Assembly: GCA_048939245.1 (NCBI GenBank)
Contig: JBHLPR010000003.1
Span: 14,266 to 78,265, forward strand
Direction: 5' to 3'
Origin: Promethearchaeota archaeon
Lineage (GTDB): Archaea > Asgardarchaeota > Hermodarchaeia > Hermodarchaeales > Hermodarchaeaceae
Length of the DNA stretch: 64,000 bases
The number at the start of each line of letters is the position of its first letter. Positions within the stretch are counted from its first letter, which is position 1. Below the pieces are notes generated by a model. The model searched no databases. It saw only the letters and a program-made list of their open reading frames with translations, and was not told the DNA's origin. Made by a program: the position numbers and the translations under genes. Shown piece after piece: positions 6,190 to 55,449 of the stretch.

Positions 6190-7068
6190 ATGAACGCTGA
6201 TCCATGTATCCACTTTAGTCATCAACTCTATGATTTACTAACTAAGATGATTTCACAAAATCTTACCTCTTCTATTGAACTGGGTGTATTATTTTCGGGA
6301 GGACTTGATAGTAGTGTAATAACTGCAATACTTACCAAGCTTCATCCAGCACCATTTCAACTCTTTGTAGCCGGTATTGAAGCAGCCAAAGATATCAACT
6401 TCGCTAGGAAAGCTGCCGAGGCTTTGAATCTTCAACTTACAATACAATTGTTTACTGCAGCAGATGTAGAAGAGGCCCTCCCAACGATATTGTCTGTTCT
6501 AGAAACTGTTGATGTTTTACATGTGGAATTAGCTATCCCACTTTTCTTTGCAGCTAAGTGTGCTAGCCAATTTAAGATTACAACACTTTTCAGTGGACAG
6601 GGTGCTGACGAGCTTTTTGGAGGATATGCCAAATATGAAAAACGCTTTCTTAACTCAGAAGAATCCACACTTAATGAAATGAAATCCGATCTCCTAACAC
6701 TCTATGATAAAACCCTTCCCTCAATGACCGCCATAGTTTCTCACTTCAATGCACGATTAATTGTTCCGTTTTGTGAACAACCAATCAAGAACTTTGCTGA
6801 CCTAATTCCCTTCTCATGTAAAATAGCTCAAATCTCTAAGAAGGTCATACGCAAACGAATTCTTCGGCTTCTTGCCAGAAATTTGAACCTTCCTTCCCAA
6901 ATAGCTGATGCCCCCAAGCGGGCCCTTCAATATGGATCCGGTACTCATCGTATCCTAAGTCGATTAGCTACTAGCTATTGGCTTAAAAAAAACCCAAAAC
7001 TCTCAAAACGTAAAACAAGAACCCATGCGCGAATTGAGCAATATCTAACTCAGTTTACTGATACCTGA
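6190..7068 (+). CDS. asparagine synthetase-domain protein (PP-loop ATP pyrophosphatase, no glutaminase domain)
   Basis: SGGLDSSV PP-loop motif and GQGADELFGGY motif typical of the AsnB C-terminal synthetase domain. 292 aa. Confidence 0.6.
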   Translation: MNADPCIHFSHQLYDLLTKMISQNLTSSIELGVLFSGGLDSSVITAILTKLHPAPFQLFVAGIEAAKDINFARKAAEALNLQLTIQLFTAADVEEALPTILSVLETVDVLHVELAIPLFFAAKCASQFKITTLFSGQGADELFGGYAKYEKRFLNSEESTLNEMKSDLLTLYDKTLPSMTAIVSHFNARLIVPFCEQPIKNFADLIPFSCKIAQISKKVIRKRILRLLARNLNLPSQIADAPKRALQYGSGTHRILSRLATSYWLKKNPKLSKRKTRTHARIEQYLTQFTDT

Positions 7069-7109: not shown

Positions 7110-7499
7110 TCATTTCAGCATTCGCTTCAAACGCTTGGTCATCAAATCGATGATTAATGTAATTGCACCTAACGGAGCATTCCGATCGGCTATCAATGCC
7201 AACACATTGGCTTCGCTGATTCTTCGTACTAGCAAATGCCCTCGTCCACACCGTAGCATCAAATCATTATATTTCCCGATTTTAAGGCTGCTCGCTGTTT
7301 GTTCGGATAGCGCACCAAGTGAAGCTATTGCTGCAGCTAATTCTAATTTCTCTACTTCCCCTTTACCCATAAGCACAATGAGCGGTAATCCGTCAGCTGT
7401 CATGACCGCAGCACTATAAATAAAGGGTTCCCGGCCCACCATTTCCTCTAAATAATTCTCTACTGTCGACATAGCTGAGGCATCGGAAGGTGATTGCAT
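7110..7499 (-). CDS. Roadblock/LC7 (MglB-like) domain protein
   Basis: 129 aa. Matches the Roadblock profile (AAVMTADGLPLIV..., LAAAIASLGAL..., GHLLVRRISEANVLALIADRNAPLG). Confidence 0.7.
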   Translation of the reverse strand: MQSPSDASAMSTVENYLEEMVGREPFIYSAAVMTADGLPLIVLMGKGEVEKLELAAAIASLGALSEQTASSLKIGKYNDLMLRCGRGHLLVRRISEANVLALIADRNAPLGAITLIIDLMTKRLKRMLK

Positions 7500-8720: not shown

Positions 8721-8960
8721 CTAAAATTCGGCTGCAATTCGTTCGCCGTAATCGGTCAAGAAGTAAAAAGAGTGATATACTCCTCGACGCTGTTCGACGA
8801 GTCCCGCAGAAAGTAGCCGCTTTAGATGATATGCAGCGGTACTTGGAGGGATATCTAATGCTCTTGCGATATCTCGCAAAAATGTTCGTTGCCCATTTAG
8901 GGTTGTTAAAATTTCTCGACGAGTGCGATGACGTAATACTTTTTCTGTGATCGGAGTCAT
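8721..8960 (-). CDS. winged helix-turn-helix transcriptional regulator (ArsR/Lrp-like HTH)
   Basis: 79 aa: RREILTTLNGQRTFLRDIARALDIPPSTAAYHLKRLLSAGLVEQ is a classic HTH-plus-wing pattern. Confidence 0.55.
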   Translation of the reverse strand: MTPITEKVLRHRTRREILTTLNGQRTFLRDIARALDIPPSTAAYHLKRLLSAGLVEQRRGVYHSFYFLTDYGERIAAEF

Positions 8961-9222
8961 ATTTTCTACCGTCCAGGAATCTCCGCCAACTCGAATGACA
9001 TTTATTTTACGCTCTTAAATATATACTTTGCGGCATAAATACGTACATTACTCGTTATGGGCGTTATATACACTTCATGTCACCTATTCACCAAATCCGG
9101 TTGTGTCCTGATTTGCTATGGCTTAGTGCTGATAAAAACTCATAAGAACAGGAAGGCAGAGTTAAACTAAACATCTTAGTGCACCATGATAGACTTAGAA
9201 ATACCCGCTGGCTGGGGTAGGC

Positions 9223-9594
9223 GTGTCGAAGAATCGAGGAAAAGATGCATATGACTTACTTATGTCCCTTCTTTCTCTAAGTGAGATTCAAAGGCGAATT
9301 CTCATTTCTCTCGCCCATATCTACCCACGTGCAGCCTCAGGTAAGCAGCTCATCACTTTGATTGGATATAGTGGAAAAGCGAAATCCTTGTATCGTGGTC
9401 CCCTTGAACGTCTCGAAAAAGAAGAGCTAATTCTTGTTGATCGATTGACTCCACGTCTTCACTCAATTCGAGTAAACCATCTGCATCCTCTAATATCGTA
9501 TCTACTCGAACTCATTGAAGCTCATGGAAAGAAAACGATGGAACTTTACACAAAAGCTCTCGAGGAGGGAACATCTGTTGACCGAGAAGAATGA
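9223..9594 (+). CDS. putative winged-helix regulator (MarR/TrmB-like)
   Basis: 123 aa: RRILISLAHIYPRAASGKQLITLIGYSGKAKSLYRGPLERLEKEELI resembles a wHTH. Confidence 0.4.
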   Translation: MSKNRGKDAYDLLMSLLSLSEIQRRILISLAHIYPRAASGKQLITLIGYSGKAKSLYRGPLERLEKEELILVDRLTPRLHSIRVNHLHPLISYLLELIEAHGKKTMELYTKALEEGTSVDREE

Positions 9595-17188: not shown

Positions 17189-20100
17189 TTAAGCAATCTC
17201 TATGTTCATAGTAATTGTATCTGGCAATCTGTTGGTTAAGTTCAGCTCATAGATTAGAATTCCTTTTGCTTCTCGATGTTCTGCAACAACAGGCAATCGA
17301 GGCAATTCAACCTGTGCTCCCGGAATTTGAATCATCACAGCTTCAGGGTCTTGTGAAAGTGCGTCGACTCCTAAAATTTGTAGTGTTACTGTTGCAGCCA
17401 AATCCTCAGTAGTGATTAACCAGAATCCAATAGACACATTGTTTTCACTAGGCTTTTGGAGTGTGAGCCAACTTTGAATTTTATCGCCTTTGTAGGTGCT
17501 GCATAAAATTGGGGTTATTTCGTACCAAATAAGATCAGTAGGTTTTGTTGATGGACGAAGATTAGAGAAAGTGCGCGTTTTCATCTGTATTTGTCCGTCA
17601 ATGGAGATTTCGGGTTCAATTTGGAGGCTGATTCGAAACTGTTCATCAGCTAGAGTAAAACTTGTTTCAGCGTCCTCGAGTCGAAAACCAGAATCGAGGA
17701 TAGACTCGTCACCCAGTTGGAAAGCCCATTGCCGTTCTAATTGTGTCGCTAACTGGGCTTGTTCTTTCGAACCGATTTGACTTGCCTCACGAAGTAGTTC
17801 GGTTAATTGTCGTCGAACCGAATCAAGCTTGTCTTTGCCTTGAGCTAGACTTGTAAATGTCAAAGGAACTTGGGTGTTCAATATCCTTGAAGCTTGTAAC
17901 CGAGTAGCGGCTTCAGTTACGTCGATACTTTCTAAGGCTTCGATTCCCTCTTGATAGACTAGATCCCATTCTTTGAAAATAAGAATTTGTGTGGATAGCG
18001 TCGGATTTGTTCTTAGGCGTGTCTGCATTAATTGGTTGTATTGAGATAATGCCGCTTCGATTGTGATGGGGTTCTCTTCCTTTGCTGCTGCTTTGAGTGC
18101 TTTTTCAATTTGGGTTGTTGCTCTTCGTAATAGGCGGTGTTGGGCACCTGCAGATGTTGACAGAGTTGCCAGTTTTGCTGTGGCGCTTCCTGCGGCACTT
18201 AAAGCCAGAATTTCATTGTGTGTATCACCTTGGGCTGCAGCAGCTTTCGCTAGTGTCTGAGCAAGGTTTTCGCTTTTTGTCAATAGGGTTTCCCATTGTG
18301 AATCTTCTGCTGGGTGTTCATCATGAACTAGGGCGTTGATATTTCGCAGTAATAGGAATGCAAAGGGATACGTTGTTTTCGTTATCTTGTCAACGGCAGG
18401 CATAAACGTGAGGGTCTGCTCCACAAACTCTTGTGCGTCTTTTTTCAATTTATATGCGTCTTGAACATCAGTTACCTTTGATATACGCTGGAGAAGAATC
18501 CAAATTAGAAGCGATCCAGCTTTCAAAGCCTTTGCTTGATGTCGTCCTTTTACCTGTGCCACCATTGCCGTGGTTGCATAATCTTCCAATTTATCCAGAT
18601 CCTTTGTGGGAAAGGATGCACTAATTTTTCCTGAGGAATCTGGCGTTACAGTTGAAATTAAGAGCTGCAAGGCTAATTGTGCACGTATTTTGGGGTCTTT
18701 GGTTTGAAAATAGAGGTGTTCGTTAAGTTGATTACTTCGTTCCATCAGCAGGTGTGCTGACTCACTTATGGTTGCAACTGGTCTCTGTGAGAGTTGTTGG
18801 GTTATCTTCGATACAACCTCAAGATCTTGGTCGTTGATTTTGGTCGATGGGGAAATCTCTGGAATCAATTGAGTTGCGTATTTCGCTGCCGTGCTTAGAA
18901 GGCTATCCTTCTCTGCGTCAGGGGCCGCTTCAGTAAGGCGGAGTATGGCTTTTATCAATTCACGGTGAATTGCCAGGGAAGCTTCAGGTTCCGTATTAAG
19001 TTGTTGCAATTGATTAAGTGCGATTTGTTGGAATTTCACATGTAATTTTGCCAACACATAACGAGCTTCAGAGGCTTCAATTTTTGGCATTAATCTGGCG
19101 AGAAGTCTGTCCAGCTGCTTTGACATGCGAAGAATGAGATTTTGGTCTATGGGACGATCCAATAAGGGTATTGTGCTGATGAGTGTTTTGAGTGTGCCCG
19201 TGGTCGCTTCTTCAAGGATTTCTGGTGAGTCTGAAGAAATCTCGCCAGTTAAGCGGAGAATATAGTCAAGCTGTTTGACAGCTCTGGCTATATCATCAAG
19301 TGCCCGATAATTGAATACCGCGGTGCGTGCAAATCGTAGACTTCGTAATAGATCATCTCCGAACGCTTTATCCGATTTTCCCTGTGCCATTTCAAACCAG
19401 AGTGTGCTTGCCCGTGTTGCCAATTTCGCGGTTGAGTAGGCATCTCGAAGTTCAATTGCTGCGTTCATTGCAGTCGTTAGATGCTTAAGCTGTGACTGAC
19501 GCAGTTTCTGGGTTGACATGGTTTGGTGTAGGCGATCTTTCAAATGCTGTTCGCTGATGTCCAAAACCTTCAGATCATCAATCGATTGAAGCGCTGTTAC
19601 GATGATCTTTCCTGTTTCTCTCCCTCTGTCCTCCATTATCTTATGAAGGGCTTTCCAATTTCTTGTGAGTTTACGTAATAGGGCAATTTGTTTTGTGGGG
19701 TCATCCTCTTGTGTGAATTCATTGATTGTGTCTTTGGCTTTGGCTGTCTGGTAGGCAAGAAGTGAGTTTCGCTGAAACTTTTCAGCAAATTCAATGATTT
19801 GCTCTAATTCCGCTTTCATTGTGGTTTCAGGAATAATGAGAAGGCGGTGTAATAGTATTTGTAAGACTGTTTCTATTGTTGAGGCATTCGTATCTTCTAG
19901 GGTTTCCAGAATCGTGGCTATTGCTGAAGCTTCAAGCGCAATTAACTCTTTTCGGAAATCTCCGTCTGGGACAATCCCTAAAAGCCAATGGCTTTTCCAT
20001 AGAAGTTCTACGGGTTCGACTTTGCGTTTAGCTGTGATATCTGCCAAAGTGCTTTCTAGGTGGTGTCGACCAAAATAGCGCGTTTCAAGGGCCTCATGAA

Positions 20101-20284
20101 TCGTAAGATCCGTATTCTTTGCTAACGTGACTGCATCTTGAAGTTTCTTTTCATAAAGAAAGATTTGGCTTAAATTATTGATTCCCCGCTTGTCAAGTTT
20201 CTTTTGAAGTTTTGTAGGAAGGCTTGATAAATCTGATAAAGAAATGGAAAGGTCAATGCCAACCATTTTATTCACCACTTTCAC
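17189..20284 (-). CDS. large (1031 aa) predominantly alpha-helical protein of unknown function
   Basis: Uninterrupted 3.1-kb ORF, no TM segments, mostly helical/coiled sequence with a beta-rich C-terminal 200 aa. No recognisable catalytic motif. Confidence 0.5.
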   Translation of the reverse strand: MKVVNKMVGIDLSISLSDLSSLPTKLQKKLDKRGINNLSQIFLYEKKLQDAVTLAKNTDLTIHEALETRYFGRHHLESTLADITAKRKVEPVELLWKSHWLLGIVPDGDFRKELIALEASAIATILETLEDTNASTIETVLQILLHRLLIIPETTMKAELEQIIEFAEKFQRNSLLAYQTAKAKDTINEFTQEDDPTKQIALLRKLTRNWKALHKIMEDRGRETGKIIVTALQSIDDLKVLDISEQHLKDRLHQTMSTQKLRQSQLKHLTTAMNAAIELRDAYSTAKLATRASTLWFEMAQGKSDKAFGDDLLRSLRFARTAVFNYRALDDIARAVKQLDYILRLTGEISSDSPEILEEATTGTLKTLISTIPLLDRPIDQNLILRMSKQLDRLLARLMPKIEASEARYVLAKLHVKFQQIALNQLQQLNTEPEASLAIHRELIKAILRLTEAAPDAEKDSLLSTAAKYATQLIPEISPSTKINDQDLEVVSKITQQLSQRPVATISESAHLLMERSNQLNEHLYFQTKDPKIRAQLALQLLISTVTPDSSGKISASFPTKDLDKLEDYATTAMVAQVKGRHQAKALKAGSLLIWILLQRISKVTDVQDAYKLKKDAQEFVEQTLTFMPAVDKITKTTYPFAFLLLRNINALVHDEHPAEDSQWETLLTKSENLAQTLAKAAAAQGDTHNEILALSAAGSATAKLATLSTSAGAQHRLLRRATTQIEKALKAAAKEENPITIEAALSQYNQLMQTRLRTNPTLSTQILIFKEWDLVYQEGIEALESIDVTEAATRLQASRILNTQVPLTFTSLAQGKDKLDSVRRQLTELLREASQIGSKEQAQLATQLERQWAFQLGDESILDSGFRLEDAETSFTLADEQFRISLQIEPEISIDGQIQMKTRTFSNLRPSTKPTDLIWYEITPILCSTYKGDKIQSWLTLQKPSENNVSIGFWLITTEDLAATVTLQILGVDALSQDPEAVMIQIPGAQVELPRLPVVAEHREAKGILIYELNLTNRLPDTITMNIEIA

Positions 20285-29883: not shown

Positions 29884-30471
29884 GTGCGGTCAATCTCACA
29901 AAATCCTGAAAATTCCAACTCCCCGAATGTGGTAGCTGCAGAGAAAGCAGGCTTCGTTGTGAAAGTAATTATAGTGGGGGATTGGGGTGTGGGAAAAACG
30001 AGTCTTATTCGAAGATTTGCTGAAAACAAGTTCGACCATGACTACAAACCCAGCATCGGCGTTAACATCGTCACCAAAGTTGTCGATGTAGCTGGAAGAA
30101 AATTAAAACTGCAACTATTCGATACAGGTGGACAAGAACGCTTTCAATCCCTTCGACAAAGGTATTACAAAGGGGCAAACGCAGTCATATTCGTCTTTGA
30201 CATAACAAGGCCTTCATCAGCATCAGCGATTGAATCCAAATGGTTAGATGAGGTGAAATCAATTCTCGGTGAAGATTTTGTACGGGTGGTTTTAGCGAAT
30301 AAAACGGATTTAGAATCTGGCCGAGCCGTATCTGAATATGCCGCTCAACAAGCCACTGATCGAATTCAAGGCAAGTATTATGAAACCAGTGCCTTAGATG
30401 GCCGGAATGTCACCGAGGCATTTTCTGAATTAGCTGCCGAATTAATGGAAAAACTCTTTCCGGAGGTATAA
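29884..30471 (+). CDS. Ras-superfamily small GTPase (Rab/Ras-like)
   Basis: G1 GDWGVGKTSL, switch II/G3 DTGGQERF, G4 NKTDL, G5 ETSAL. About 170-aa G-domain. N-terminal about 25 aa uncertain (true start may be internal). Confidence 0.8.
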   Translation: MRSISQNPENSNSPNVVAAEKAGFVVKVIIVGDWGVGKTSLIRRFAENKFDHDYKPSIGVNIVTKVVDVAGRKLKLQLFDTGGQERFQSLRQRYYKGANAVIFVFDITRPSSASAIESKWLDEVKSILGEDFVRVVLANKTDLESGRAVSEYAAQQATDRIQGKYYETSALDGRNVTEAFSELAAELMEKLFPEV

Positions 30472-30475
30472 CTCT

Positions 30476-31699
30476 TTGAAATCCCGAATTTCGGAGATAG
30501 GTGAAGAATATATCCAACTAGCCTTTCAAGTCGATTATTTCCTCAAAAACCAGATTGGAGAGGACACTATAATTGTCGATAGTTATTTTGGTCCACCCGA
30601 ACTCAAACCCGAAATACACACTGTGGACCCAGATCTCTTACTAAAATCAATCCATCAGCTCCGCGAAAAAATCAAAAAACGAATAAAAGAACATCCGCAA
30701 AGAACCTATCTGATTAAACAATTAGATGCTCTAGCCCTTCTTGTGAAATATGGTCTTAATGAAAAGGTCACCTTCAGCGAAAGAGTAAAGACGGGATTAG
30801 ACGTCGATGTCGTCGTTATTTCAAATGAACGCATCGATGAGCTAAATGAACAGGCATATCGCGCCCTTCGAAAAGAGGTCCTGAAAGGGGACCTTACTAC
30901 CATGGCGACCAGCTGGCGAAGACGAGCAATGACGACAGGCGCTGAGATTGTTCCTCTTGCACAGGATGTGGCAGCAGAGGCTAGACAAGCCACAGAACAA
31001 GTTCTTTTCAAACTACCTAGAGAAGAAGCGGTCGAGTTTCATGCAGTGCCCACCGCTCCGTGGAGCGCTTATAACTATTATAAGGGAAATTATAAGGCAA
31101 TTATTGAAATTAATATCGAGTTACCACGGAGCAAATACACTATTTGGAAATGGGTAACCCACGAAACCTATCCAGGGCATCAAACCCAATTAGTCCAGCG
31201 AGAAGCAGGTTTTCATAAAGACTTACATAATCTCGAAGCAACGATTGCAATAATTAATACTCCTGAATGCACCATAGCTGAAGGATTAGCTGAAGCTGGC
31301 TCAGATCTCCTAAGTACAGCTCGTCCACTGACAAAACCTGAAACGGTTTCATCCTATCTGTTACAACTTCGACGAGCCGTAGGTATCAATGCATTGGTAA
31401 TGCTTCAGGAAAAACAAACTAGTGAATCCGAAGTTGTGGAATACATCAAAGATCTTGGAGCTTATGAAGAAGATTATGCAAAGGCTCGAATACCCTTCAT
31501 GACGGATCCAATGTGGGCTCCCTATGGATACACCTACCTTATCGGAGCCTGGTTAGTACGTGGTTTCTTCAAAGCTGCGCAAGAAGCTCACCTCATTGAT
31601 GAATTCATCAAAGCCCTCTATTTGGAAGTCCACACTCCTTCAACACTCAAATCACGGATTTCCAAACTTGAATTAAAACTACCCAAGCAAATCATCTAA
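30476..31699 (+). CDS. hypothetical protein with a DUF885-like HExxPGHxxQ motif (putative metallo-hydrolase)
   Basis: 407 aa. WVTHETYPGHQTQLV resembles the conserved motif of the DUF885 family. Starts 4 bp after the GTPase stop (likely operon). Confidence 0.4.
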   Translation: MKSRISEIGEEYIQLAFQVDYFLKNQIGEDTIIVDSYFGPPELKPEIHTVDPDLLLKSIHQLREKIKKRIKEHPQRTYLIKQLDALALLVKYGLNEKVTFSERVKTGLDVDVVVISNERIDELNEQAYRALRKEVLKGDLTTMATSWRRRAMTTGAEIVPLAQDVAAEARQATEQVLFKLPREEAVEFHAVPTAPWSAYNYYKGNYKAIIEINIELPRSKYTIWKWVTHETYPGHQTQLVQREAGFHKDLHNLEATIAIINTPECTIAEGLAEAGSDLLSTARPLTKPETVSSYLLQLRRAVGINALVMLQEKQTSESEVVEYIKDLGAYEEDYAKARIPFMTDPMWAPYGYTYLIGAWLVRGFFKAAQEAHLIDEFIKALYLEVHTPSTLKSRISKLELKLPKQII

Positions 31700-32769: not shown

Positions 32770-33783
32770 GTGTCAGATATTCTTGGTGTATTAGGTCAGC
32801 TAGGATCACAAGTAGATGAAAAAATGCTCGAACTTCTTGCTGTAGGTGCCTCAAAGGACTTCCAGGAGGTGGTCTTTCATCAGGTTCAAGCTGGCGGAAA
32901 ACGTATTCGACCGGCCTTGACACTTCTATTTTGTCAAGCTGTAGGTGGGGATATTAATGATGCCTTATCTACAGCCGCGGCTATCGAATTAGTCCACAAC
33001 TACTCACTGATCCTCGACGATATCATCGATGATGCTTACATACGACGAAATCTCCCCACGACATGGACCAAATACGGTCTCAACTTTGGTGTTTTAGCAT
33101 CGACTCATTATCGGGAAGCCATTGAGGAAGGCGTGCTTCAATCTCCTAACCACTCAGCAATCTCACGAATTATCGCAGATACTATTCGCGAACTAGTCGA
33201 AGGCGAACGACTAGATGTTCTATTCGAACAACTACCAAGCGAAGAAGAATATACGGAGAAACACCGCTATCGTGATGTCAGCTTAGATGATTATGAAACC
33301 ATGATAGGATACAAAACAGCCTCATTAATCCGCGCCGCATGTGAAGTTGGAGTAATCTGTGCAGGAGGTTCAGAAAAACAACAAGAAGCTGCAAGAGAAT
33401 TTGGCTGGAAGGCTGGCATCGCCTTTCAGCTAGCTGATGATGTACTCGATCTTTTTGCCGAAGAAATGAAACTTGGAAAAAAATTGGGTAAAGATATCTA
33501 TGAACATAAACTGGGTAATGCTGTGATTTTGCGAGCTCTTCCTCTTCTGTCTCCTGATGACCGCGGCTTCGTTCTCAAGGTTCTTCGCTCTCCAAAACCT
33601 AATGAATCCGATGTTAAAGAAGTGATCAAACTCTTTAAACAAACTAAGGCTAGTGAACAAGTACGAGAACTAGCAAAACAGCTGGTTGAAGAAGCAAAAA
33701 AGGCACTCAAACATTTTCCAAATAAAGATGCAACCGCGTTACTTGAAAATCTAGTCGCCTTTATCTATCAACGCTCCTTCTAA
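32770..33783 (+). CDS. trans-isoprenyl diphosphate synthase (GGPP synthase-type)
   Basis: First aspartate-rich motif LILDDIIDD, second QLADDVLD, and KR.RP substrate lysine/arginine motif. Confidence 0.8.
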   Translation: MSDILGVLGQLGSQVDEKMLELLAVGASKDFQEVVFHQVQAGGKRIRPALTLLFCQAVGGDINDALSTAAAIELVHNYSLILDDIIDDAYIRRNLPTTWTKYGLNFGVLASTHYREAIEEGVLQSPNHSAISRIIADTIRELVEGERLDVLFEQLPSEEEYTEKHRYRDVSLDDYETMIGYKTASLIRAACEVGVICAGGSEKQQEAAREFGWKAGIAFQLADDVLDLFAEEMKLGKKLGKDIYEHKLGNAVILRALPLLSPDDRGFVLKVLRSPKPNESDVKEVIKLFKQTKASEQVRELAKQLVEEAKKALKHFPNKDATALLENLVAFIYQRSF

Positions 33784-36027: not shown

Positions 36028-36819
36028 ATGGCGGATAAATTTGTTTTATTGCTCGAGTTTTCTTCGGGAATCATCGAACCCCTTCCCCTTTCGGTTGGAG
36101 CCCTCACAGAAGATCGAATTGTGATAGTGATTGATGAAATCAAAGAACGTGTCTGGTTATGGCAAGGGACTACAACCACTCTTGTCGAACGCCGAGCAGC
36201 ACAACGTAAAGCACGCTCGCTTGTCAGTGCGGGATACCAACTTGGTCCATATCGAATTGGACGGGATGTAACCGATATCGAAATTATCGATGGTGATATT
36301 CTTGATGACCCTGAAATAAAAGGGTACTACGACCAATTAGTTCATACTCTAAGCCAAAATTTTAAAATCACCGAAGGTGTCCTTGGCAGGTTCAGTGGAA
36401 CCCTCTCTCCTGCTCCACAACCAACAGAAGGCGTGTCTGCGCCAACACCGAAACCCGCATCAACACCTACACCCATAGAAAAAAGTGTTCCAGCTCAAGA
36501 AGAGGTAATAAAAGTCGCTCCTGCTGCATCAACGACGGAAGTTGTTGCTCCGAAGCCGACTCGTGAATTACAGGATCTTGGGGTGATTCGGGTCGGAATT
36601 CTCATCTCTTCCATTCTCGACTTCTTCCCCATGTGTTATGTTAGTGCCACTAAAATCGAGGATGGTACACGCTATTCAATAGAAGACCCTGAAGGCATCA
36701 TCTGTCAAATTGAAGTGGCTAACGGTTCGGTTCATTTTCTCCAACGGTATGATTTTCGTGGAAGGCGCAAAGACATTCTTGGGATGCTCCGTGACCGATT
36801 AGCTGCCGCAGATCTTTAG
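36028..36819 (+). CDS. gelsolin-like domain protein (single N-terminal gelsolin domain + P/T/A-rich linker + unknown C-domain)
   Basis: RIVIVIDEIKERVWLWQGTTTTLVERRAAQRKARSLVSAGYQLG fits the gelsolin-repeat signature. Linker PAPQPTEGVSAPTPKPASTPTP. Confidence 0.5.
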   Translation: MADKFVLLLEFSSGIIEPLPLSVGALTEDRIVIVIDEIKERVWLWQGTTTTLVERRAAQRKARSLVSAGYQLGPYRIGRDVTDIEIIDGDILDDPEIKGYYDQLVHTLSQNFKITEGVLGRFSGTLSPAPQPTEGVSAPTPKPASTPTPIEKSVPAQEEVIKVAPAASTTEVVAPKPTRELQDLGVIRVGILISSILDFFPMCYVSATKIEDGTRYSIEDPEGIICQIEVANGSVHFLQRYDFRGRRKDILGMLRDRLAAADL

Positions 36820-36926
36820 CACATCCCTCTCAAAGGAAAATTTTTGCAGGAACTGTATTCAATACAACACGCAATTCAAGCACAGGGTCAACTTAATAAA
36901 TACGGTAACAAATTCTAAACCGACCC

Positions 36927-37766
36927 TTGACACAAAATACACTCTGCAGGTACCGAGCTAGTAATTCGGGGGTCAAAATTCCTCAAAGTAAGCAGCGCTT
37001 CGAACCCTTTTGGGTCAATCGGGATGTTATAAACATGACACGAATTATAATGTTGGAAATTGGAGGTCTAGGCTTTGTTCGATCTATTCGTCCTGGAGCT
37101 CGGAAGCTCCAGGGTGATGTCTGTGTCGCAGTGGTAGATGAACAAAATAAAGCCCTTTGGTTTTGGATGGGGAGCGGTGTTCAATACGATAAACGCCGGA
37201 CAGCGAAGGCAAAAGCTGAACAAATCACTTCGGAAGGGCATCGAATCGGGGATGAACATCTAGCTCGTGGATATACTCTTGTTCCCATAGACCAAGATAA
37301 GCTCGAGGACCCCACAACCTCCAATAACTACAATAACCTTATTGCACTCCTTGAAGCACCAATGGAAATCAATACGGTTGCTAATCCTAAAGGAACGCTA
37401 ATCATAGGGCAACTTCAAGTAGGTATTTCATCTGCTCCTGTATCCACAAGTACTCAAGCGCCTGCAGAAACTGCTCCCTCTCAAGTAAGTATTACTCCAG
37501 GGAAACCTGCTGTTCCAGCCACCACTAAAAAAACCACTAAATTAGATTTGGAAGCCGCTTTGATGGCTGTTATTCGTGTTCATCAACAGGTGCACATCGA
37601 GTATAAAAGCAAGGATGATACTGAAGAAATTACCATCGAAGGTATTGATGGGCTTACTCACAAAATGAAACGGAGCAAAGGAAAACTCACCTTCAAATGG
37701 GATTCAAAAACTCCGAAAGAGCTCAAACAATTGGTTGCCCATGAGCTCAAACGCATCGCAGGCTAA
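36927..37766 (+). CDS. gelsolin-like domain protein, paralog of 36028-36819
   Basis: VCVAVVDEQNKALWFWMGSGVQYDKRRTAKAKAEQITSEGHRIG. Similar S/T/A/P-rich linker and C-terminal domain. True start likely an internal Met (about 37036). Confidence 0.5.
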   Translation: MTQNTLCRYRASNSGVKIPQSKQRFEPFWVNRDVINMTRIIMLEIGGLGFVRSIRPGARKLQGDVCVAVVDEQNKALWFWMGSGVQYDKRRTAKAKAEQITSEGHRIGDEHLARGYTLVPIDQDKLEDPTTSNNYNNLIALLEAPMEINTVANPKGTLIIGQLQVGISSAPVSTSTQAPAETAPSQVSITPGKPAVPATTKKTTKLDLEAALMAVIRVHQQVHIEYKSKDDTEEITIEGIDGLTHKMKRSKGKLTFKWDSKTPKELKQLVAHELKRIAG

Positions 37767-37793
37767 TGCAGCATTGATTAAAGGCATGAAATA

Positions 37794-38366
37794 ATGAGCT
37801 CTCTTCTTTTTGCCTTGCTATTAATTGCTTCATATTCCCTCGTCGGGGGAGCTATCAAAGTACTGGACCAACTAACAGATCATCCAGAATCTTATCAAAG
37901 TCGCCACATCTATCTGTGGTTGCTAACAGTTATTCTAGTTATTCTAGTCAATATCTGTGTCTTCCTTGATGTCTATACTGCTGTCCTAGCAATTGGAGTA
38001 ATCTTAGGATTAATTGTGACACACAAAGTCGATAACAGATATTTCGTCGTTTTAACAATCACCATATTACCTCTAAGTATACTTCGGGTCTTAGGATTCG
38101 CATTTACTTCGTTCATTCTCCTAACTCTCCTCGCAGTTTTTATTGCCTCACTCTTTGATGAATTATTACACGAAAAAGCATCAAAGGTTTCAACCACTGC
38201 CTTACACACTCTTCTAACGTATCGCCCTATCTTGAAAATCTTGGTGTTAATCCTTCCTTTCTGGAATTTATTAACCTTCATTCACACTTTAGGATTCTGG
38301 GGGTTTGATTTTGCATATGAATTGGTTGCATACTACTTTCGCGCCTCTTCCCTTCCAGAAGCTTAA
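37794..38366 (+). CDS. polytopic membrane protein (about 5-6 TM), unknown function
   Basis: 190 aa hydrophobic ORF directly downstream of the gelsolin-like pair. Confidence 0.4.
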   Translation: MSSLLFALLLIASYSLVGGAIKVLDQLTDHPESYQSRHIYLWLLTVILVILVNICVFLDVYTAVLAIGVILGLIVTHKVDNRYFVVLTITILPLSILRVLGFAFTSFILLTLLAVFIASLFDELLHEKASKVSTTALHTLLTYRPILKILVLILPFWNLLTFIHTLGFWGFDFAYELVAYYFRASSLPEA

Positions 38367-38468
38367 GTTCACATAGATTAAACCTCCAAATCGAGTCCTT
38401 CTCTCCTGGTTTGGAAAGGTTTAAGTCGGCTCAATTGCCAAAGAAACACACAAAGGTGAGGCTAAACC

Positions 38469-38711
38469 ATGAAAGCAAATATCTCGCTTTCCTATAGGGG
38501 ATCAAGTCGTGAAGAGAATGCAACTAAGACTGGCTGGATTAATTTACTACTAAACCAACATGGACGGATAATTAGTAAATTACCTCTGGGGGAAGGACGA
38601 TATCATTTTGTCATTGAACTCGAGGACTTGGAACGATTTACCCAGTCCCTTTTTGAGTTCACACGGCAAAATCCTTGGCTACGTGTAGAAAAAGTCTCAA
38701 CTCACGCTTGA
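38469..38711 (+). CDS. hypothetical small protein (80 aa)
   Basis: ORF only; no motif. Confidence 0.3.
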   Translation: MKANISLSYRGSSREENATKTGWINLLLNQHGRIISKLPLGEGRYHFVIELEDLERFTQSLFEFTRQNPWLRVEKVSTHA

Positions 38712-38726
38712 GACCCTACAGGATTT

Positions 38727-40133
38727 TCAACCGAGAATGAACCGTTGACCAATTCTAGGGGCTATTGCAGGGCATCTAAGAAGACCTTTGGCAGTATTTG
38801 CTAGACTCTTACAGGCTCCAGGACTCCCATGAATACAAAACACGGTTTGTGGAGGATTTCGCCGAAGGGAAGCAAGAAATTCCTTTAATTCATTCTTATC
38901 CGCGTGAGCTGAAAACCCGTACAAACGTTCAACTTGCGTCTTTACCCTTTTTTTGCGTCCATATATTGTTACAGTTCTAGCACCGCGAACTATCTGCTGA
39001 CCCAGAGTTCTAGGGGCTTGAAAGCCGATTACCAGTAAGTGGGTGTTTTTGTTTTCGATGCGACGATAAAGGTGCCTAAGGATGCGTCCTCCGTTCATCA
39101 TTCCCGAACCTGCAACAATCATGATTGGTCCTTGTTGCTGGCTAAGCTGGTCGCTTTCATATTGGCGTTCCACAAACTGGAGACCTTTAAACTCCAGAGG
39201 GGCGTCACCAGATTGTATCAAATCCCAGGTTTCTTCATCAAAACATTCTCTATGGTGTGTGAAAATCTCTGTGGCCCTAATAGCTAAGGGGGAATCAATA
39301 GCAACTGGAATAACTGGGACACGAGCATTTTCTACAAGTAAGTTGAGTGCATAGATGAGCGCTTGGGTCCGGCCAATAGCAAAAGCGGGAACCAAAATGT
39401 GGCTTCGATGACGATACGCTTTTACAATAATTCGCTCAAAACGTCTAATGGTTTTTGAAAAAGGTTCATGAGTACGATTAGCATATGTCGATTCGCATAG
39501 AAGGTAGGTCGCACTATCAGGAAAATCCGGATCTCGAATTATTGGTGCATTCTTCCGTCCAATATCTCCCGAATCAACAAGATGGATAATTTTTCCTCGC
39601 TCTTCTGCCCACACTTCAATAATGGATGATCCCAGTATGTGTCCGGCATCTCGAAATCGGAGCGTCACATTTCCTGGAAGACTCTTCTTTTCACCATATT
39701 TCAGAATACGCAATTTGTTGATAGTTCGTTCTACATCTCGAATTGTAAATAATGGCTCAATTGAAGGATGATGGTTGCTCTTCGACTCGCTCTGATGAAT
39801 TCTGGCTCTGGCAGCATCTTCTTCCTCGCTTTCTGCAACATCTTGAAGAAGCATTGAGCAAAGCTCCGCGGTCGCTGCAGTCACATAGATCGGTCCTTGA
39901 AAACCTAATCGAACAAGAATTGGTAAGCGACCGCAATGATCGAGGTGTGCATGGGATAGAATTACAAAATCAATTTCAGATGGATCGAATTCAAAGGAAC
40001 TGTTCCGTTGGTATTGTTTTGCTGGGTTACCTTGGAAGAGTCCACAATCAATAAGAAACGAAGTTGATTTTGTCTTAATGTGGTAAAGACTCCCAGTTAC
40101 AGTCTGTCCAGCCCCATGAATCACTAGTTCCAA
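38727..40133 (-). CDS. beta-CASP ribonuclease of the metallo-beta-lactamase fold (aCPSF/RNase J-like)
   Basis: ILSHAHLDHCGRLP (HxHxDH), later D and H metal ligands, C-terminal beta-CASP/RMMBL pattern. 468 aa. Confidence 0.75.
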   Translation of the reverse strand: MELVIHGAGQTVTGSLYHIKTKSTSFLIDCGLFQGNPAKQYQRNSSFEFDPSEIDFVILSHAHLDHCGRLPILVRLGFQGPIYVTAATAELCSMLLQDVAESEEEDAARARIHQSESKSNHHPSIEPLFTIRDVERTINKLRILKYGEKKSLPGNVTLRFRDAGHILGSSIIEVWAEERGKIIHLVDSGDIGRKNAPIIRDPDFPDSATYLLCESTYANRTHEPFSKTIRRFERIIVKAYRHRSHILVPAFAIGRTQALIYALNLLVENARVPVIPVAIDSPLAIRATEIFTHHRECFDEETWDLIQSGDAPLEFKGLQFVERQYESDQLSQQQGPIMIVAGSGMMNGGRILRHLYRRIENKNTHLLVIGFQAPRTLGQQIVRGARTVTIYGRKKRVKTQVERLYGFSAHADKNELKEFLASLRRNPPQTVFCIHGSPGACKSLANTAKGLLRCPAIAPRIGQRFILG

Positions 40134-40175
40134 GATATCTGGCTCCTCTCAGGTGTAGTAGATAGTACTGAGAAA

Positions 40176-41129
40176 TTAGCCAAAAAGGTCAAACTCAGAG
40201 GATCCACCATTGTTGCCATTCTCTTCTTCATTATCCACAGCTTCTTCCCTTTCTTCTTGTTCTTCTTCTTTGGTCTCATCATTTTCTTTGGGAGGATTCT
40301 GGCTAATCTTGGATAGTTGTTCACGCATGGATTCCATCACAGAAACCGGTTTGTCCTCAGTGGAAGGAGTAACCCCCCTTTCCAGCTGAGTGGATGCAAT
40401 GAATATCTGTCCTTCCGCTGCCAGTTGAGGTTGTTGACCGAAGCATCGAGAAAACGCCTCGATATCTTCTTGAGCTTCTGCTCGAATCTCTGAGAAAAGG
40501 ATAGCATCTCCTTGACAGAAAAACCGCATTTGTAAACGTATAACTGAAACCTGAAATTCATTGGGGCCAATTGGGTTCATAGTGGCCTGTCCGTAACAGT
40601 CAGCTACAGCGAAAAGAACCTTAGTTGCTAGTTGTTCCTCATAGGTTAGTATCCGGCGACGAATTGGAGTTACTTTCCGCACAGGTTCAGGCATAATTGT
40701 CTGCTCAATAACCTCAACCTTATCTTTGAAGGCTTCTTCAAATGTTGATATCTTCTCTTCTTCTTTAACAACAACCAGATACTCTGAAGTCTTCTGATGG
40801 GTATCAAGAAGCTTCTGAAGAAGAGTGGCTTTTGGGCTTTTTAGTTCCCCCGGAACTTCAATGAAGGTCGTACATTTTGTGCCAAAGTGCGTGTCTTCGA
40901 CACGGGTTCCATTCTTCATTATAAATCGCGCTTGACGAAGAGCTGTTGTACGTTGTAGCATTGAAGTTCCTCGTCCGAGCCACACCCAAACGATACCCTC
41001 TGGTTCATCGACAATAAGGATAGATCTTCCATCGACGAGGTGGTTAGGATTCCAGTGGAGCGCTTGCATTTCGCCTCCTTCACCTAGGATTTCAATCATC
41101 CCAATGAATTGTTTCATTTCTCGTATCAC
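40176..41129 (-). CDS. gelsolin-like domain protein with acidic C-terminal tail
   Basis: SILIVDEPEGIVWVWLGRGTSMLQRTTALRQARFIM gelsolin-like signature. C-terminal EEEQEEREEAVDNEEENGNNGGSSEFDLFG. Confidence 0.5.
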   Translation of the reverse strand: MIREMKQFIGMIEILGEGGEMQALHWNPNHLVDGRSILIVDEPEGIVWVWLGRGTSMLQRTTALRQARFIMKNGTRVEDTHFGTKCTTFIEVPGELKSPKATLLQKLLDTHQKTSEYLVVVKEEEKISTFEEAFKDKVEVIEQTIMPEPVRKVTPIRRRILTYEEQLATKVLFAVADCYGQATMNPIGPNEFQVSVIRLQMRFFCQGDAILFSEIRAEAQEDIEAFSRCFGQQPQLAAEGQIFIASTQLERGVTPSTEDKPVSVMESMREQLSKISQNPPKENDETKEEEQEEREEAVDNEEENGNNGGSSEFDLFG

Positions 41130-41214: not shown

Positions 41215-42504
41215 TCACGCTTTTTTCTTTCGAACCTCAGCAAGGATTTCTTGGGCTCGATCAAATCGAACACGTTTTTCAGCAATCATCTGCTTTGCAA
41301 CTTGGTCAACTTCTTCACCCGCGGCTCCGGCTGCTACTGCCACATTTCGGGCATGAAGTTTCATGTGTCCAGTTTGAATTCCTTCTTGACTTAGCGCTCG
41401 TAAAGCCGCAAGGTTTTGTGCTAATCCCACACTAGCAATAATCTGTGCGAGTTCAGTTGCTTTTTTCACACCTAATATTTTTACACAAAGCTTGGCTATT
41501 GGGTGGGTTCTGGTCGCTCCACCCACTAATCCAACTGCCATTGGCAACTCGATGGTTCCCCGTAAATCACCTTCTGGCGTTTTATTGTACTGGGTAAGCG
41601 ATTGATAACCTCCCTCTCGTGTTGCGGCGTAGGTATGGGCTCCCGCTTCAATAGCTCGGAAATCTTGACCAGTGGATAACAAGACGGCATCGATTCCATT
41701 CATGATGCCCTTATTATGAGTGGCACATCTGTAGGGGTCAGCCTGGGCAAAAGCGTAAGCCTTCAGGATCCCATCAACCCCCTTCGAACCGCCAAGAGTC
41801 TTGGCGGGGAATATTGCTTCGGCTTTCGCAAGTCGATAGACGGCTAGATTGGACAAAATTCGAAGGTAGACCTTCCCCTTTGTGAGCTCCTCGATTATGG
41901 GCGCTAATGCTTCACACATCGTATTCACTGCATTTGCCCCCATCGCGTCGCGCGTATCAACCAATAGATGAATAATAAGCATAGGGCCCATCATCGATTC
42001 CAAAGTTCGTAACTGTAAATCCAGTGCGCCTCCCCCAAATTTCACTAAGATAGGATCTTGTCTATTTGCCACCATTAACAAATTCTCTTTCTGTTTAAGA
42101 ATCGCTTGTTTAGCAACTTTCACATCGGGTAAGTCGGCGACTTGGATTTGTCCTATCATCACTGGATCCGTGGTTCTTGCTGTAAATCCTCCAGTTTTAC
42201 GCGCCATTCGTGCAGCATTTGATGCTGCCGCAACAACGGATGGTTCTTCCAATGCCATTGGTATGAGGTAGTCTTTTCCATTTATCTGGAAATTTGTCGC
42301 TATGCCCAAGGGAAACGCGTAGGAACCCACTACGTTCTCAATCATCCGATCAGCGGTAGCTGCGTCTAGGCCACCAAAGGCCTTTAACAGAGCCACTTCC
42401 TCATCCGAAAGATCTGCAAAGGTACGAAGCTTTTCAAGCCGTTCTTGGATGGAGAGACGGTAGAATCCACTAATAGCGGAGGTTTTTTTTGACACGATAT
42501 TCAC
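41215..42504 (-). CDS. hmgA: HMG-CoA reductase, class II
   Basis: ENVVGSYAFPLGIATNFQINGKDYLIPMALEEPSVVAAASNAA closely parallels the class II (P. mevalonii-type) ENVIG...NFQING...EEPS block. DAMGAN present. 429 aa. Confidence 0.85.
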   Translation of the reverse strand: MNIVSKKTSAISGFYRLSIQERLEKLRTFADLSDEEVALLKAFGGLDAATADRMIENVVGSYAFPLGIATNFQINGKDYLIPMALEEPSVVAAASNAARMARKTGGFTARTTDPVMIGQIQVADLPDVKVAKQAILKQKENLLMVANRQDPILVKFGGGALDLQLRTLESMMGPMLIIHLLVDTRDAMGANAVNTMCEALAPIIEELTKGKVYLRILSNLAVYRLAKAEAIFPAKTLGGSKGVDGILKAYAFAQADPYRCATHNKGIMNGIDAVLLSTGQDFRAIEAGAHTYAATREGGYQSLTQYNKTPEGDLRGTIELPMAVGLVGGATRTHPIAKLCVKILGVKKATELAQIIASVGLAQNLAALRALSQEGIQTGHMKLHARNVAVAAGAAGEEVDQVAKQMIAEKRVRFDRAQEILAEVRKKKA

Positions 42505-53469: not shown

Positions 53470-54801
53470 GTGCTTAGCATAAGCCTTTATAGGGCATCTT
53501 ACTCAAAACGAGGGAATAACCTGCTGAGATTAGGTGAATTAAGAGTGACACGTAAAGTTTGTATGATCGGTGGTGCAACCACACCTTTCGATTATCCTCT
53601 TCATTCTACGACTGAAAATGGAATCGCTGAATGCGTTCGAGAACTCCAAAGAGATCTCCCCCATTTTAGCCTACGTGATCTTGATCTGATGATTTACAGT
53701 CATTTCAGCGTTCACTTCGAAAAACAACTTTGCCCTGAGTGGATTGTTCATGATCATTTGGGTCTTGTTGGGCTTCCTCACTATAGGGTAGAAAACGGTG
53801 GAAACACTGGGGGTTCTGCCCTCTATGCTGCTTTCCTTGCGGTTCGATCAGGGGTTCACGACGTAGTTGGAATTGCGGGATGGGAATCAATGGATTCAGT
53901 TACACAGAGTCAGGGAGCTGAGTTCATTGCTATGGCTTCAGATACAAGATATGAACTTTTAGCCGGGGGTATTTACCCAATTTATTATGCCGCCATGGCT
54001 TACCTCTTCATGAAGCAACACAACATGACCGAAGAAGACTTTGCCTTGGTTGCTATGAAAAATCGTAATAATGCAATGGACAATCCAAAGTCTCAATGGT
54101 ATCGCAACGAACACATGTACGTTACTGTGGATGATATCATGAATTCTCGACTCATTTCATATCCCATCAAGAAGTATGACTGCTGTATGATGACCAAAGG
54201 TGGTGCATTCGCTGTCTTCTGTACAGAAGATTATGCTAAAAAAGTAGCTCCAGGACAGTACATTGAGGTTACTGGTGCGGGTTTAAGTAGCTGTACAATC
54301 CGTGCAGGTGATCGACTAGCCTTCCCAGGATGGACAGAACGGTACGGTCCTGGTTACCCGGATATGTCTGAATTTGGTGCGTGTCGGGCATCAGGTGAGA
54401 TGGCATATAAAATGGCAGGAGTCAAGAACCCATTGAAGGAAATTGACGTGGCTGAATTACACGACGCCTTCTCAACATCTGAAGTTCAAATTTACAAAGC
54501 TTTGAACTGGTGCACAAAAGAGAATGTAGGTGAATTTGTCAGGAATAAAGAAACTTTCATGGGTGGCTCTATTCCTAGTAACCCTGGTGGTGGTTTGATG
54601 GGCTTTGGACATCCTGTTGGTGCTACCGGCATAATGTCTGCTGTTGAATGTTATTACCAGCTTGCAGGTATGGCGAAAACGAAGCATTTGAGTAAAAAAA
54701 CCCAGGTTCCAAGTGCTCAAAGGGGACTAGTCAATAGTCATGCTGGGACAGGGACAAGTATCTCGAACTTTATTTTTGAAGTACCCTCAGGAGGTCGATA
54801 G
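53470..54801 (+). CDS. thiolase-superfamily protein (SCP-x/archaeal-type), partner of DUF35; canonical N-terminal Cys nucleophile not evident
   Basis: C-terminal thiolase signature NPGGGLMGFGHPVGATG. Probable start MIGGATTPF (about 53563). Region where the nucleophile Cys is expected reads VENGGNTGGSALYAAFLAVRSGVHDVVGIAGWESM. Confidence 0.6.
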   Translation: MLSISLYRASYSKRGNNLLRLGELRVTRKVCMIGGATTPFDYPLHSTTENGIAECVRELQRDLPHFSLRDLDLMIYSHFSVHFEKQLCPEWIVHDHLGLVGLPHYRVENGGNTGGSALYAAFLAVRSGVHDVVGIAGWESMDSVTQSQGAEFIAMASDTRYELLAGGIYPIYYAAMAYLFMKQHNMTEEDFALVAMKNRNNAMDNPKSQWYRNEHMYVTVDDIMNSRLISYPIKKYDCCMMTKGGAFAVFCTEDYAKKVAPGQYIEVTGAGLSSCTIRAGDRLAFPGWTERYGPGYPDMSEFGACRASGEMAYKMAGVKNPLKEIDVAELHDAFSTSEVQIYKALNWCTKENVGEFVRNKETFMGGSIPSNPGGGLMGFGHPVGATGIMSAVECYYQLAGMAKTKHLSKKTQVPSAQRGLVNSHAGTGTSISNFIFEVPSGGR

Positions 54802-54804
54802 CAA

Positions 54805-55449
54805 ATGGATGATTTTCGTGGTGATAAAGACTCCACACTGGTTAATCGAAAAATAGTCCGTCCTCCAGATACAAAGGAAGTCGGCTTTCAATTTGTCGAT
54901 TATGCATATACCAAAGATAAGGAACTCTTTGTTCAACACCTGCATTACGATCAGCTATACGCAATTCGCTATGGAGATCTTTCTCCATATGCTAAAGGGC
55001 TCGTTGAAGGAAAACTCATGGGCACACGTTGTCCAAAATGTGGAGACAAGTTCTTTCCCGCTCGAGTCCATTGTTGGAATCTCGATTGTAATTTAGAACC
55101 CACCGAGTGGATTGAGTTAAAGCCTGAAGGGCGTGTACACACCTACACGCAAGCAGGTTGGGCTGCAAAATCTGTGCTCAAAAAACTCCCATTCATTTTA
55201 GCGTATGTAGTTGTTGATAATTGTAAAACTGCCATCGCTAATGATCTCAAAGGTCTCAAGCCATGGGATGCGGAATTCGGCATGCCTGTCATAGTGAAGT
55301 TCAAACCCAAAGTAGAACGTGTTGGTAGCATCACCGATTTTTGGTTTGAACCTGCACCAGACTGGAAGCCTTCTCCTATGAATGCTGAGAAAGAGCGCAT
55401 CAAACAACTATGTGAGCCAGTTTATAAATGGGTGAAAACCCTCAAGTAG
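54805..55449 (+). CDS. DUF35 zinc-ribbon/OB-fold protein (thiolase-associated scaffold)
   Basis: CPKCGDKFFPARVHC...C rubredoxin-like ribbon followed by an OB-fold region. Starts 4 bp after the thiolase-like gene. Confidence 0.7.
   Translation: MDDFRGDKDSTLVNRKIVRPPDTKEVGFQFVDYAYTKDKELFVQHLHYDQLYAIRYGDLSPYAKGLVEGKLMGTRCPKCGDKFFPARVHCWNLDCNLEPTEWIELKPEGRVHTYTQAGWAAKSVLKKLPFILAYVVVDNCKTAIANDLKGLKPWDAEFGMPVIVKFKPKVERVGSITDFWFEPAPDWKPSPMNAEKERIKQLCEPVYKWVKTLK

Follow-up and report, generated by a model that had tools for sequence, protein, structure and literature searches.

Three highly diverged single-domain gelsolin-type paralogs of a Hermodarchaeia genome: relation to an unannotated pan-Asgard family and a probable role in actin regulation

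The 64,000-nucleotide stretch of contig JBHLPR010000003.1 (Promethearchaeota archaeon, Hermodarchaeia; assembly GCA_048939245.1) analysed here, referred to as the window and numbered from its first letter, encodes three paralogous proteins, G1, G2 and G3, each with one highly diverged gelsolin-homology (GH) domain. That each N terminus is a true, although very diverged, gelsolin-type domain is well supported, and the architecture of G1 recurs in many other Asgard lineages. With a probability that can be put at roughly 0.6, G1–G3 bind and regulate actin through the GH domain, their C-terminal modules adding a further contact or localisation.

Three Paralogous Genes

G1 (36028–36819, forward strand) encodes 263 residues comprising a GH domain, a disordered linker and a conserved C-terminal domain, as judged from the open reading frame (ORF), 67 homologs and an AlphaFold2 (AF2) model. 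G2 (37035–37766, forward strand; 243 residues), defined by its ORF, its start codon and profile comparison with hhalign, is a tandem paralog with the architecture of G1, i.e. a GH domain (residues 1–125), a linker rich in Pro, Thr, Ala and Ser (P/T/A/S; residues ~129–163) and a C-terminal domain (residues ~164–243). G3 (40176–41117, reverse strand; 313 residues) has a GH domain, a charged linker, an alpha/beta C-terminal domain, a helix and an acidic tail ending EFDLFG. The coordinates of these three ORFs, and of a membrane-protein ORF that follows the tandem pair, had been proposed in an earlier reading made from the DNA letters (hereafter the sequence-only reading) and all proved correct. 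The raw ORFs extend beyond the refined starts (G2 from 36927, G3 out to 41129); orthologs place the start of G2 at the ATG at 37035, giving a protein 100% identical to NCBI MFX1575780.1 (locus tag ACFFCF_01265), and that of G3 at the ATG at 41117, its orthologs beginning MKQ.

The homologous N-terminal domain common to G1, G2 and G3 comprises ~105 residues, with D36, E37, W43, W45, G47, R55, A58 and A62 invariant in the three-way alignment. The shared motif proposed earlier thus stands as regards its conserved residues, but the spacing within the helix is R..A...A, not R.A..A. Profile–profile comparison of the isolated N-terminal domains gives probabilities of 96.7–98.7% (expectation value, E, 4e-10 to 1.5e-16) over 79–101 columns of ordinary, not low-complexity, composition, so ruling out the concern that the similarity is confined to low-complexity sequence. 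When families are compared, hhalign relates G2 to G1 over the full length (98.9%, E 1e-17) and G3 to the N-terminal domain of G1 (98.5%, E 2e-15), and a six-frame profile scan of the window found exactly three copies of the domain. G1, G2 and G3 are three paralogs, each with one highly diverged GH domain, and G2 is a diverged tandem duplicate of G1.

The families of G1, G2 and G3 contain 67, 42 and 61 members, respectively, and conserved homologs number more than 160. Their source genomes are without exception Asgard metagenome-assembled genomes (MAGs) labelled Thor, Hermod or Promethearchaeota, or in occasional cases Odin or Hod, and each protein carries the annotation "hypothetical", without a Pfam domain.

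Evidence for a Gelsolin Fold

The GH domain of G1 (36028–36402, forward strand; residues 1–125) carries D36-x8-W45-x-G47 and Glu54 and is defined by model confidence (predicted local distance difference test, pLDDT, 84–93) together with Foldseek and profile searches. That of G3 (40767–41117, reverse strand; the first ~117 residues from the ATG) is defined by pLDDT values of 87–94, by hhalign and by phmmer, which matches it to villin domain 3 at E 0.096. A profile of the G1 family has as its top three PDB matches Heimdall 2DGel (E 0.0097), Loki 2DGel and Thor ProGel. The merged N-terminal domain profile (A5) matched 32 PDB chains, 32 of 32 belonging to the gelsolin superfamily, including villin (E 9e-11), Loki 2DGel (E 1e-6), gelsolin (E 6e-6), Heimdall 2DGel (E 2.5e-4) and Thor ProGel (E 0.012), as well as adseverin and CapG. 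Against 1.84 billion representative proteins, A5 retrieves first ~90 Asgard-type proteins (E ≤1e-10) and next long multi-repeat proteins, the three of these that were sampled being six-repeat villins with PF00626 and headpiece domains (E ~1e-8). Some distant relatives lie near the PF00626 cutoff of 21 bits, e.g. P0178 (17.1 bits) and P0240 (21.7 bits). For G2, the gelsolin assignment is a prediction drawn from its hhalign probability of 98.7–98.9% to G1.

AF2 models of G1 and G3 were built on the family alignments; N-terminal domain confidence is ~85–94 for both, the mean pLDDT of the complete G1 model being 79.5. When compared with the PDB using Foldseek, both have Thor ProGel (7c2f_B) as their best domain match, with template-modelling scores (TM-scores) of 0.74 for G1 and 0.83 for G3 (root-mean-square deviation 2.3 Å), followed by domains of gelsolin, adseverin, villin and CapG. 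All of the top 50 matches of G1 have gelsolin-type domains, as do nearly all of those of G3, with a few low-probability exceptions. Structural modelling, which had been suggested as a check, therefore predicts the fold for G1 and G3, so that none of the grounds for refutation named in the sequence-only reading applies, and the claim that the genes encode single-domain gelsolin-like proteins is borne out by profile searches, structure models, fold searches and the DWG signature alike.

The latter signature, D-x8-W-x-G with the spacing seen in ProGel, is present in 67 of 67 members of the G1 family, 40 of 42 of the G2 family and 54 of 61 of the G3 family, and in 75 of 91 distant relatives. The merged alignment shows no variation at W45 and G47, and the long helix, with the consensus [KR]RR[TA]A.R.A, is among the most conserved stretches of the domain. 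The DWG motif separates gelsolin from cofilin (Akil 2020, PMC7444086). Membership of the cofilin/ADF-H group was considered and rejected, DWG being present instead of WP and ADF-H structures being absent from the top 50 fold matches of both G1 and G3. The gelsolin-like domain of Sec23/Sec24 sits inside a coat subunit of ~700 residues or more; membership of that group was likewise rejected, since G1–G3 have 243–313 residues and no zinc-finger, trunk, beta-barrel or helical domains.

With respect to calcium, the residue seven positions after WxG, which we take from our own alignment to the human sequence to be equivalent to the type II calcium ligand E97 of human gelsolin, is Glu in 67 of 67 members of the G1 family (Glu54 in G1), and a near-invariant Asp is present at [ED]DR. 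It is Lys in G2, Gln in G3 and mixed in the distant relatives. The G1 family thus may keep both candidate type II calcium ligand positions within a single-domain protein; calcium sites appear to be absent from G2 and G3.

Linkers, C-terminal Domains and the G3 Tail

The G1 linker (36403–36561, forward strand; residues 126–178) is P/T/A/S-rich, disordered (pLDDT <50 for residues 134–177) and of differing length among orthologs. P/T/A/S-rich linkers had been ascribed to all three proteins, which is correct for G1 and G2 (60–63%, the G1 value being 60%) but not for G3, the linker of which is charged, with 20% P/T/A/S, and partly ordered in the AF2 model.

The G1 C-terminal domain (36562–36816, forward strand; residues 179–263) is an alpha–beta4–alpha unit of ~85 residues, supported by pLDDT values of ~90 and by jackhmmer. 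With the GH domain masked, a jackhmmer search from it converges on 168 sequences and recruits the whole G2 family (E ~1e-22; the C-terminal domain of G2 itself at 2e-22) and ~58 distant relatives, a kinship between G1 and G2 that pairwise profile comparison alone missed. The G3 family was never recruited by this search, and hhalign comparison of the G3 C-terminal domain with those of G1 and G2 was negative. The description of the C-terminal regions as distinct thus holds for G3 but has to be amended for G1 and G2, where they are homologous. The domain shared by G1 and G2 has no match in the PDB or Pfam.

The C-terminal domain of G3 (40398–40643, reverse strand; residues 163–244 of the model) has the helix/strand order H-E-E-E-E-H-E, with pLDDT values of 92–95. 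The tail that follows (40179–40397, reverse strand; pLDDT ~30) comprises a conserved amphipathic helix, SV.(D/E)SMR.QLS, an acidic disordered stretch of ~40 residues and a terminus of the form [FY]-[DE]-[LFMW]-F-x, which in G3 reads ...GGSSEFDLFG. The poly-acidic tail noted from the sequence is real, Asp and Glu making up 37% of the last 43 residues; 56 of 56 full-length members of the G3 family end with hydrophobic-[FY]-x(0-3)-COOH after the acidic stretch.

Foldseek alignments of 260–320 columns to multi-domain gelsolins prompted consideration of the C-terminal domains as degenerate second gelsolin domains. Profile–profile comparison of the isolated C-terminal with the N-terminal domains found nothing, and the sequences give this idea no support, although kinship at the level of the fold is possible.

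A Pan-Asgard Family and Its Gene Neighbours

The architecture of G1, i.e. a GH domain, a variable linker and the same C-terminal domain, is present in MAGs labelled Odinarchaeia, Helarchaeota, Hodarchaeota and Lokiarchaeota and in the closed genome of Ca. Harpocratesius repetitus. The family comprises ~90 clusters at 50% identity, from MAGs labelled Thor/Hermod, Loki, Odin, Hel and Hod, and its members outside the window's group are always annotated "hypothetical protein". Of the three proteins, G1 comes nearest to this pan-Asgard type (BLASTP identity 25–31% over ~90% coverage); G3-type proteins turned up in no group other than Thor/Hermod. The linkers of the G1-type proteins are proline-rich, charged or coiled-coil, the relative P0188 alone having a coiled-coil insert in the linker.

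Two further relatives differ in domain content. P0240 (374 residues) combines a canonical GH domain, which passes the Pfam threshold, with one of the present type and, at the C terminus, a zinc ribbon, and P0173 (525 residues) has two GH domains of the present type. By their predicted domains, these proteins link the diverged family to the 2DGel class.

Profilin is encoded directly beside the G1-type gene in 3 of 10 distant loci (L019, L021 and L023), representing at least two lineages. In L019 the profilin gene (6587–6955, forward strand) lies 45 bp upstream on the same strand and its product matches 5zza_P, the Odin profilin crystallised with actin, at E 1e-28; in L021 (2927–3295, reverse strand) and L023 (4391–4750, reverse strand) the profilin genes are divergently oriented. 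A profilin hidden Markov model matched among these neighbours at 5e-33. An ATP-dependent DNA ligase is encoded within 2 kb in 8 of the 10 distant loci (L019, L020 and L022–L027), in varying orientation, and in L023 the profilin, GH and DNA ligase genes are contiguous. In the context of the distant relatives, profilin is therefore a signal that fits actin, and the dominant signal, ligase, is without explanation.

In L028, a divergently oriented neighbour of the G1-type gene (3994–4581, reverse strand; 195 residues) was considered as a ProGel-like GH protein and set aside, its profile match being weak (E 2e-3) and Pfam giving none. It carries a ProGel-like core, VLVLDDQRGDLWVLRG.

Proposed Function and Alternative Explanations

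The analyses above show that G1–G3 are conserved paralogs with the gelsolin fold and with homology to gelsolin repeats, and define how their domains are arranged. Regulation of actin is supported as their role by their profile and fold kin, by the DWG motif, by the behaviour of assayed Asgard GH proteins, by the profilin neighbours and by the conserved long helix. Probably the GH domain binds the actin of the organism (lokiactin) via this basic helix, as ProGel or the first domain of gelsolin does; such binding would cap, sever or sequester filaments, with the C-terminal domains and the G3 tail supplying a second binding site or a localisation signal.

Several findings weigh against this proposal. 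The single G1, G2 and G3 sequences do not match PF00626, even at E up to 1, so that the alignment to this family suggested in the sequence-only reading fails, and scans of the same sequences against Pfam and NCBIfam returned no match. Identity to ProGel is 13–18% in the Foldseek alignments (~26%, by hand count, over the 53-residue core of the single-sequence alignment). Sec23, the gelsolin-like domain of which is not known to bind actin, is among the fold matches, further down than the actin-binding proteins. A search for actin and profilin genes, suggested earlier for elsewhere in the genome, found neither in the 64-kb window; for profilin this extends to the Thor/Hermod loci. In a metagenome scan for the Loki-type subfamily, which yielded 80 loci (L029–L108) with a median pairwise identity of 50% and forming 30 clusters at 70% identity, a neighbouring profilin gene is seen in 0 of 57 loci. 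Where the sequence reaches far enough, the next gene downstream is a DNA ligase on the same strand in 42 of 42 loci, a setting that gives no hint of actin.

As to where such proteins might act, the sequence-only reading proposed a membrane-associated actin-regulatory module. The gene following G2 encodes a polytopic membrane protein (TM protein; 37794–38366, forward strand; 190 residues), predicted from hydropathy to have ~6 transmembrane segments (about six, possibly seven, hydrophobic stretches), which could recruit G1–G3, e.g. via their C-terminal domains, with G2 and the TM gene forming an operon. Compatible with this, the order G1-G2-TM-G3 is kept in every one of the 14 species-representative loci of sufficient length, as well as in L001–L003, as part of the longer order DUF7121, M24 peptidase, G1, G2, TM, (80-residue ORF, beta-CASP RNase), G3, HMG-CoA reductase; in L003 and L017, the most diverged loci (~44% identity), the 80-residue and beta-CASP genes are gone and G3 abuts TM. 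The TM ORF begins 27 bp 3' of G2 in the window, the gap being 25–27 bp in the window, L001 and L003 and the ORFs abutting in all other Thor/Hermod loci, and the 15 homologs of the TM protein are always encoded after G2.

This adjacency is, however, weak evidence for a functional unit, because the flanking housekeeping genes (HMG-CoA reductase, M24 peptidase and DUF7121) are equally syntenic in the clade. Outside the Thor/Hermod clade the G1-G2-TM-G3 cluster is not conserved, none of 90 distant G1-type genes has a TM homolog beside it, and the membrane proteins that do adjoin distant G1-type genes are unrelated to one another. The TM protein, which matches no Pfam or NCBIfam family, has enzyme-like acidic motifs (K..D...D, K.DN.YF, DE.LH, RP..K and FD.AYD, two of them DxxxD-like) and is encoded in an isoprenoid-rich region, and so could be a small membrane enzyme instead of a cytoskeletal anchor. 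The module proposal is thus weakly supported: whether the TM protein belongs to the system is uncertain, its recruitment of G1–G3 is doubtful, and co-expression of G2 with TM, with the set acting at the membrane, is no less so.

Two small ORFs were observed within the cluster. L003 has an extra ORF between G1 and G2 (8941–9423, forward strand) for an all-helical protein of 160 residues, which is absent from the window. The 80-residue ORF of the window (38469–38711, forward strand), between TM and the beta-CASP RNase, has no family match; it is 80–96% identical across Thor/Hermod loci, exceeding the conservation of G1–G3 and TM there.

A different alternative is that the gelsolin fold has been reused for a role not involving actin, in concert with DNA ligase, with some other partner or as a generic interaction scaffold like that of Sec23/24, which the three copies in the window inherit. 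The invariant downstream ligase of the Loki-type loci, steadier than their other flanks (the largest upstream group accounts for 28 of 52 loci, and the gene after the ligase is of one family in 33 of 41), and the ligase near 8 of the 10 other distant loci both fit this idea, as do the extreme divergence of the domain from actin-binding gelsolins and the presence of Sec23 among the fold matches. Yet profilin adjoins the G1-type gene in three loci from at least two lineages, the sequence-profile matches are to actin-binding gelsolins and villins and not to Sec23, and loci of the clade to which the window belongs lack the ligase link. Furthermore, the median gap to the ligase in the Loki-type loci is 110 bp (a ligase, partial ones included, is seen in 60 of 80), and with the conserved gene beyond it this may be a syntenic block. 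On this evidence a non-actin role seems improbable. Its more specific form, in which the G1-type family is functionally coupled to the ATP-dependent DNA ligase and the Thor/Hermod triad arose by lineage-specific expansion off the ligase locus with new partners (TM for G2, a translation-GTPase-type partner for G3 by way of its stalk-like L-F-G tail), is distinctly unlikely.

That the likeness to gelsolin arose by chance or from low sequence complexity, the ORFs being unrelated orphans, as the marginal single-sequence matches (E 0.1 to 1.2; Thor ProGel, 7c2f, at 1.2) taken alone might suggest, although those to the PDB fall on gelsolin-type domains, is refuted with near certainty, because profile E-values (down to 1e-10), fold similarity (TM-scores 0.74–0.83), motif conservation and the more than 160 homologs all agree. 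Actin regulation through the GH domain is thus the preferred interpretation.

Other Features of the Window

The remaining window content consists of housekeeping genes, several isoprenoid genes, a Ras-family GTPase and a Roadblock/LC7 protein (7110–7499, reverse strand). The isoprenoid genes encode a polyprenyl synthase (32770–33783), HMG-CoA reductase (41215–42504) and thiolase-like and DUF35-type proteins (53470–55449). The Ras/Arf-like small GTPase (29884–30471, forward strand) is followed after 4 bp by a conserved protein of 407 residues (30476–31699, forward strand) without a family match; this pair recurs in L001, L002 and L003, so that the 407-residue protein is a possible partner of the GTPase. 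An ORF of 1031 residues (17189–20284, reverse strand) has no Pfam or NCBIfam match. A scan for promoters and terminators with bacterial consensus sequences gave counts equal to the shuffled expectation and is uninformative.

Implications

Published inventories of Asgard GH proteins, which list ProGel, 1DGelX and 2DGel, rest on BLAST searches (Akil 2020, 2022) or on Foldseek applied to one organism (L. ossiferum). The unannotated pan-Asgard family and its new domain enlarge this known repertoire; if the family binds actin, inventories based on Pfam or BLAST undercount it, and its conserved domain of ~85 residues becomes a candidate module for binding actin or a partner. A single-domain ancestor able to bind calcium was postulated by Akil et al., who did not find one in sequence databases; the two candidate type II calcium ligands of the G1 family bear on this. 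Two associations without explanation are also raised, i.e. the DNA ligase genes found beside G1-type genes and the resemblance of the G3 tail to that of the ribosomal stalk; coupling to the ligase, if true, would tie a regulatory fold of the actin type to DNA replication or repair, or to cell-cycle control.

Comparison with Known Systems

The eukaryotic counterparts with the most significant profile matches are third domains (adseverin A3, villin V3 and gelsolin domain 3), the alignment spanning the core of strand, hairpin, WxG and long helix. Eukaryotic gelsolins and villins have three to six repeats, whereas G1–G3 are solitary domains below the PF00626 threshold.

The tail of G3 resembles that of the ribosomal stalk proteins aP1/P1/P2, likewise a flexible acidic stretch ending ...[LF]-x-x-L-F-[GD]-COOH (L-S-A-L-F-G in aP1, E-F-D-L-F-G in G3). 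The aP1 tail, ...L-S-A-L-F-G-COOH, binds aEF1-alpha and aEF2 (PMC4267659), and by analogy the G3 tail may resemble a device for recruiting translation GTPases; the remainder of the protein has no homology to the stalk proteins, and with so short a motif convergence or chance is possible.

Among Asgard proteins, Thor ProGel (PDB 7C2F chain B; KXH73987.1) is the closest in fold. Like G1–G3 it has a single domain of gelsolin/cofilin type with identical D-x8-W-x-G spacing, and it lacks calcium sites, as G2 and G3 also appear to do. By contrast with G1–G3, which are 13–18% identical to it, it consists of the domain alone (94 residues), without linkers or structured C-terminal domains. ProGel binds actin weakly. 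The Asgard 2DGel proteins (Thor 7C2G, Loki 7WHG and Heimdall 7WHF) are among the best sequence-profile matches, and Loki 2DGel, like P0240, combines GH domains with a zinc ribbon. They differ in having two GH domains, a WH2-like LRRV/LKDV motif and several calcium sites, as opposed to the one GH domain of G1–G3, in which no such motif was seen.

The nearest parallel in architecture is with the Asgard 1DGelX/GelX proteins (Thor KXH72031.1; L. ossiferum B35_GelX, UYP44381.1, B35_Gel1, UYP47899.1, and B35_Gel2, UYP48324.1), which also comprise one GH domain, a disordered region and an uncharacterised X region. ProGel, 1DGelX and 2DGel were defined in Thorarchaeota, where 1DGelX (KXH72031.1) binds rabbit actin with a dissociation constant of 7.7 µM and severs filaments independently of calcium (Akil 2020, PMC7444086). 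Its GH domain is 35% identical to that of ProGel and its X region is a predicted coiled coil (Akil 2020, PMC7444086), as against 13–18% in G1–G3 and a confidently modelled alpha/beta X region in G1 and G3, a comparison made with the published description. Several 1DGelX paralogs are present per Loki genome (Akil 2022). The B35 proteins co-immunoprecipitate with Lokiactin; a 2025 preprint reports this behaviour for five GH proteins of L. ossiferum, some of which have a single GH domain and disordered regions, and two of the five, of 26.6 and 29.2 kDa, are of G1-type size. The Asgard GH proteins assayed in the literature consulted acted on actin in vitro, ProGel only weakly. G1–G3 are diverged members of this known Asgard class in which a single GH domain is joined to an extension (GelX), Thor 1DGelX being set apart from them by its description.

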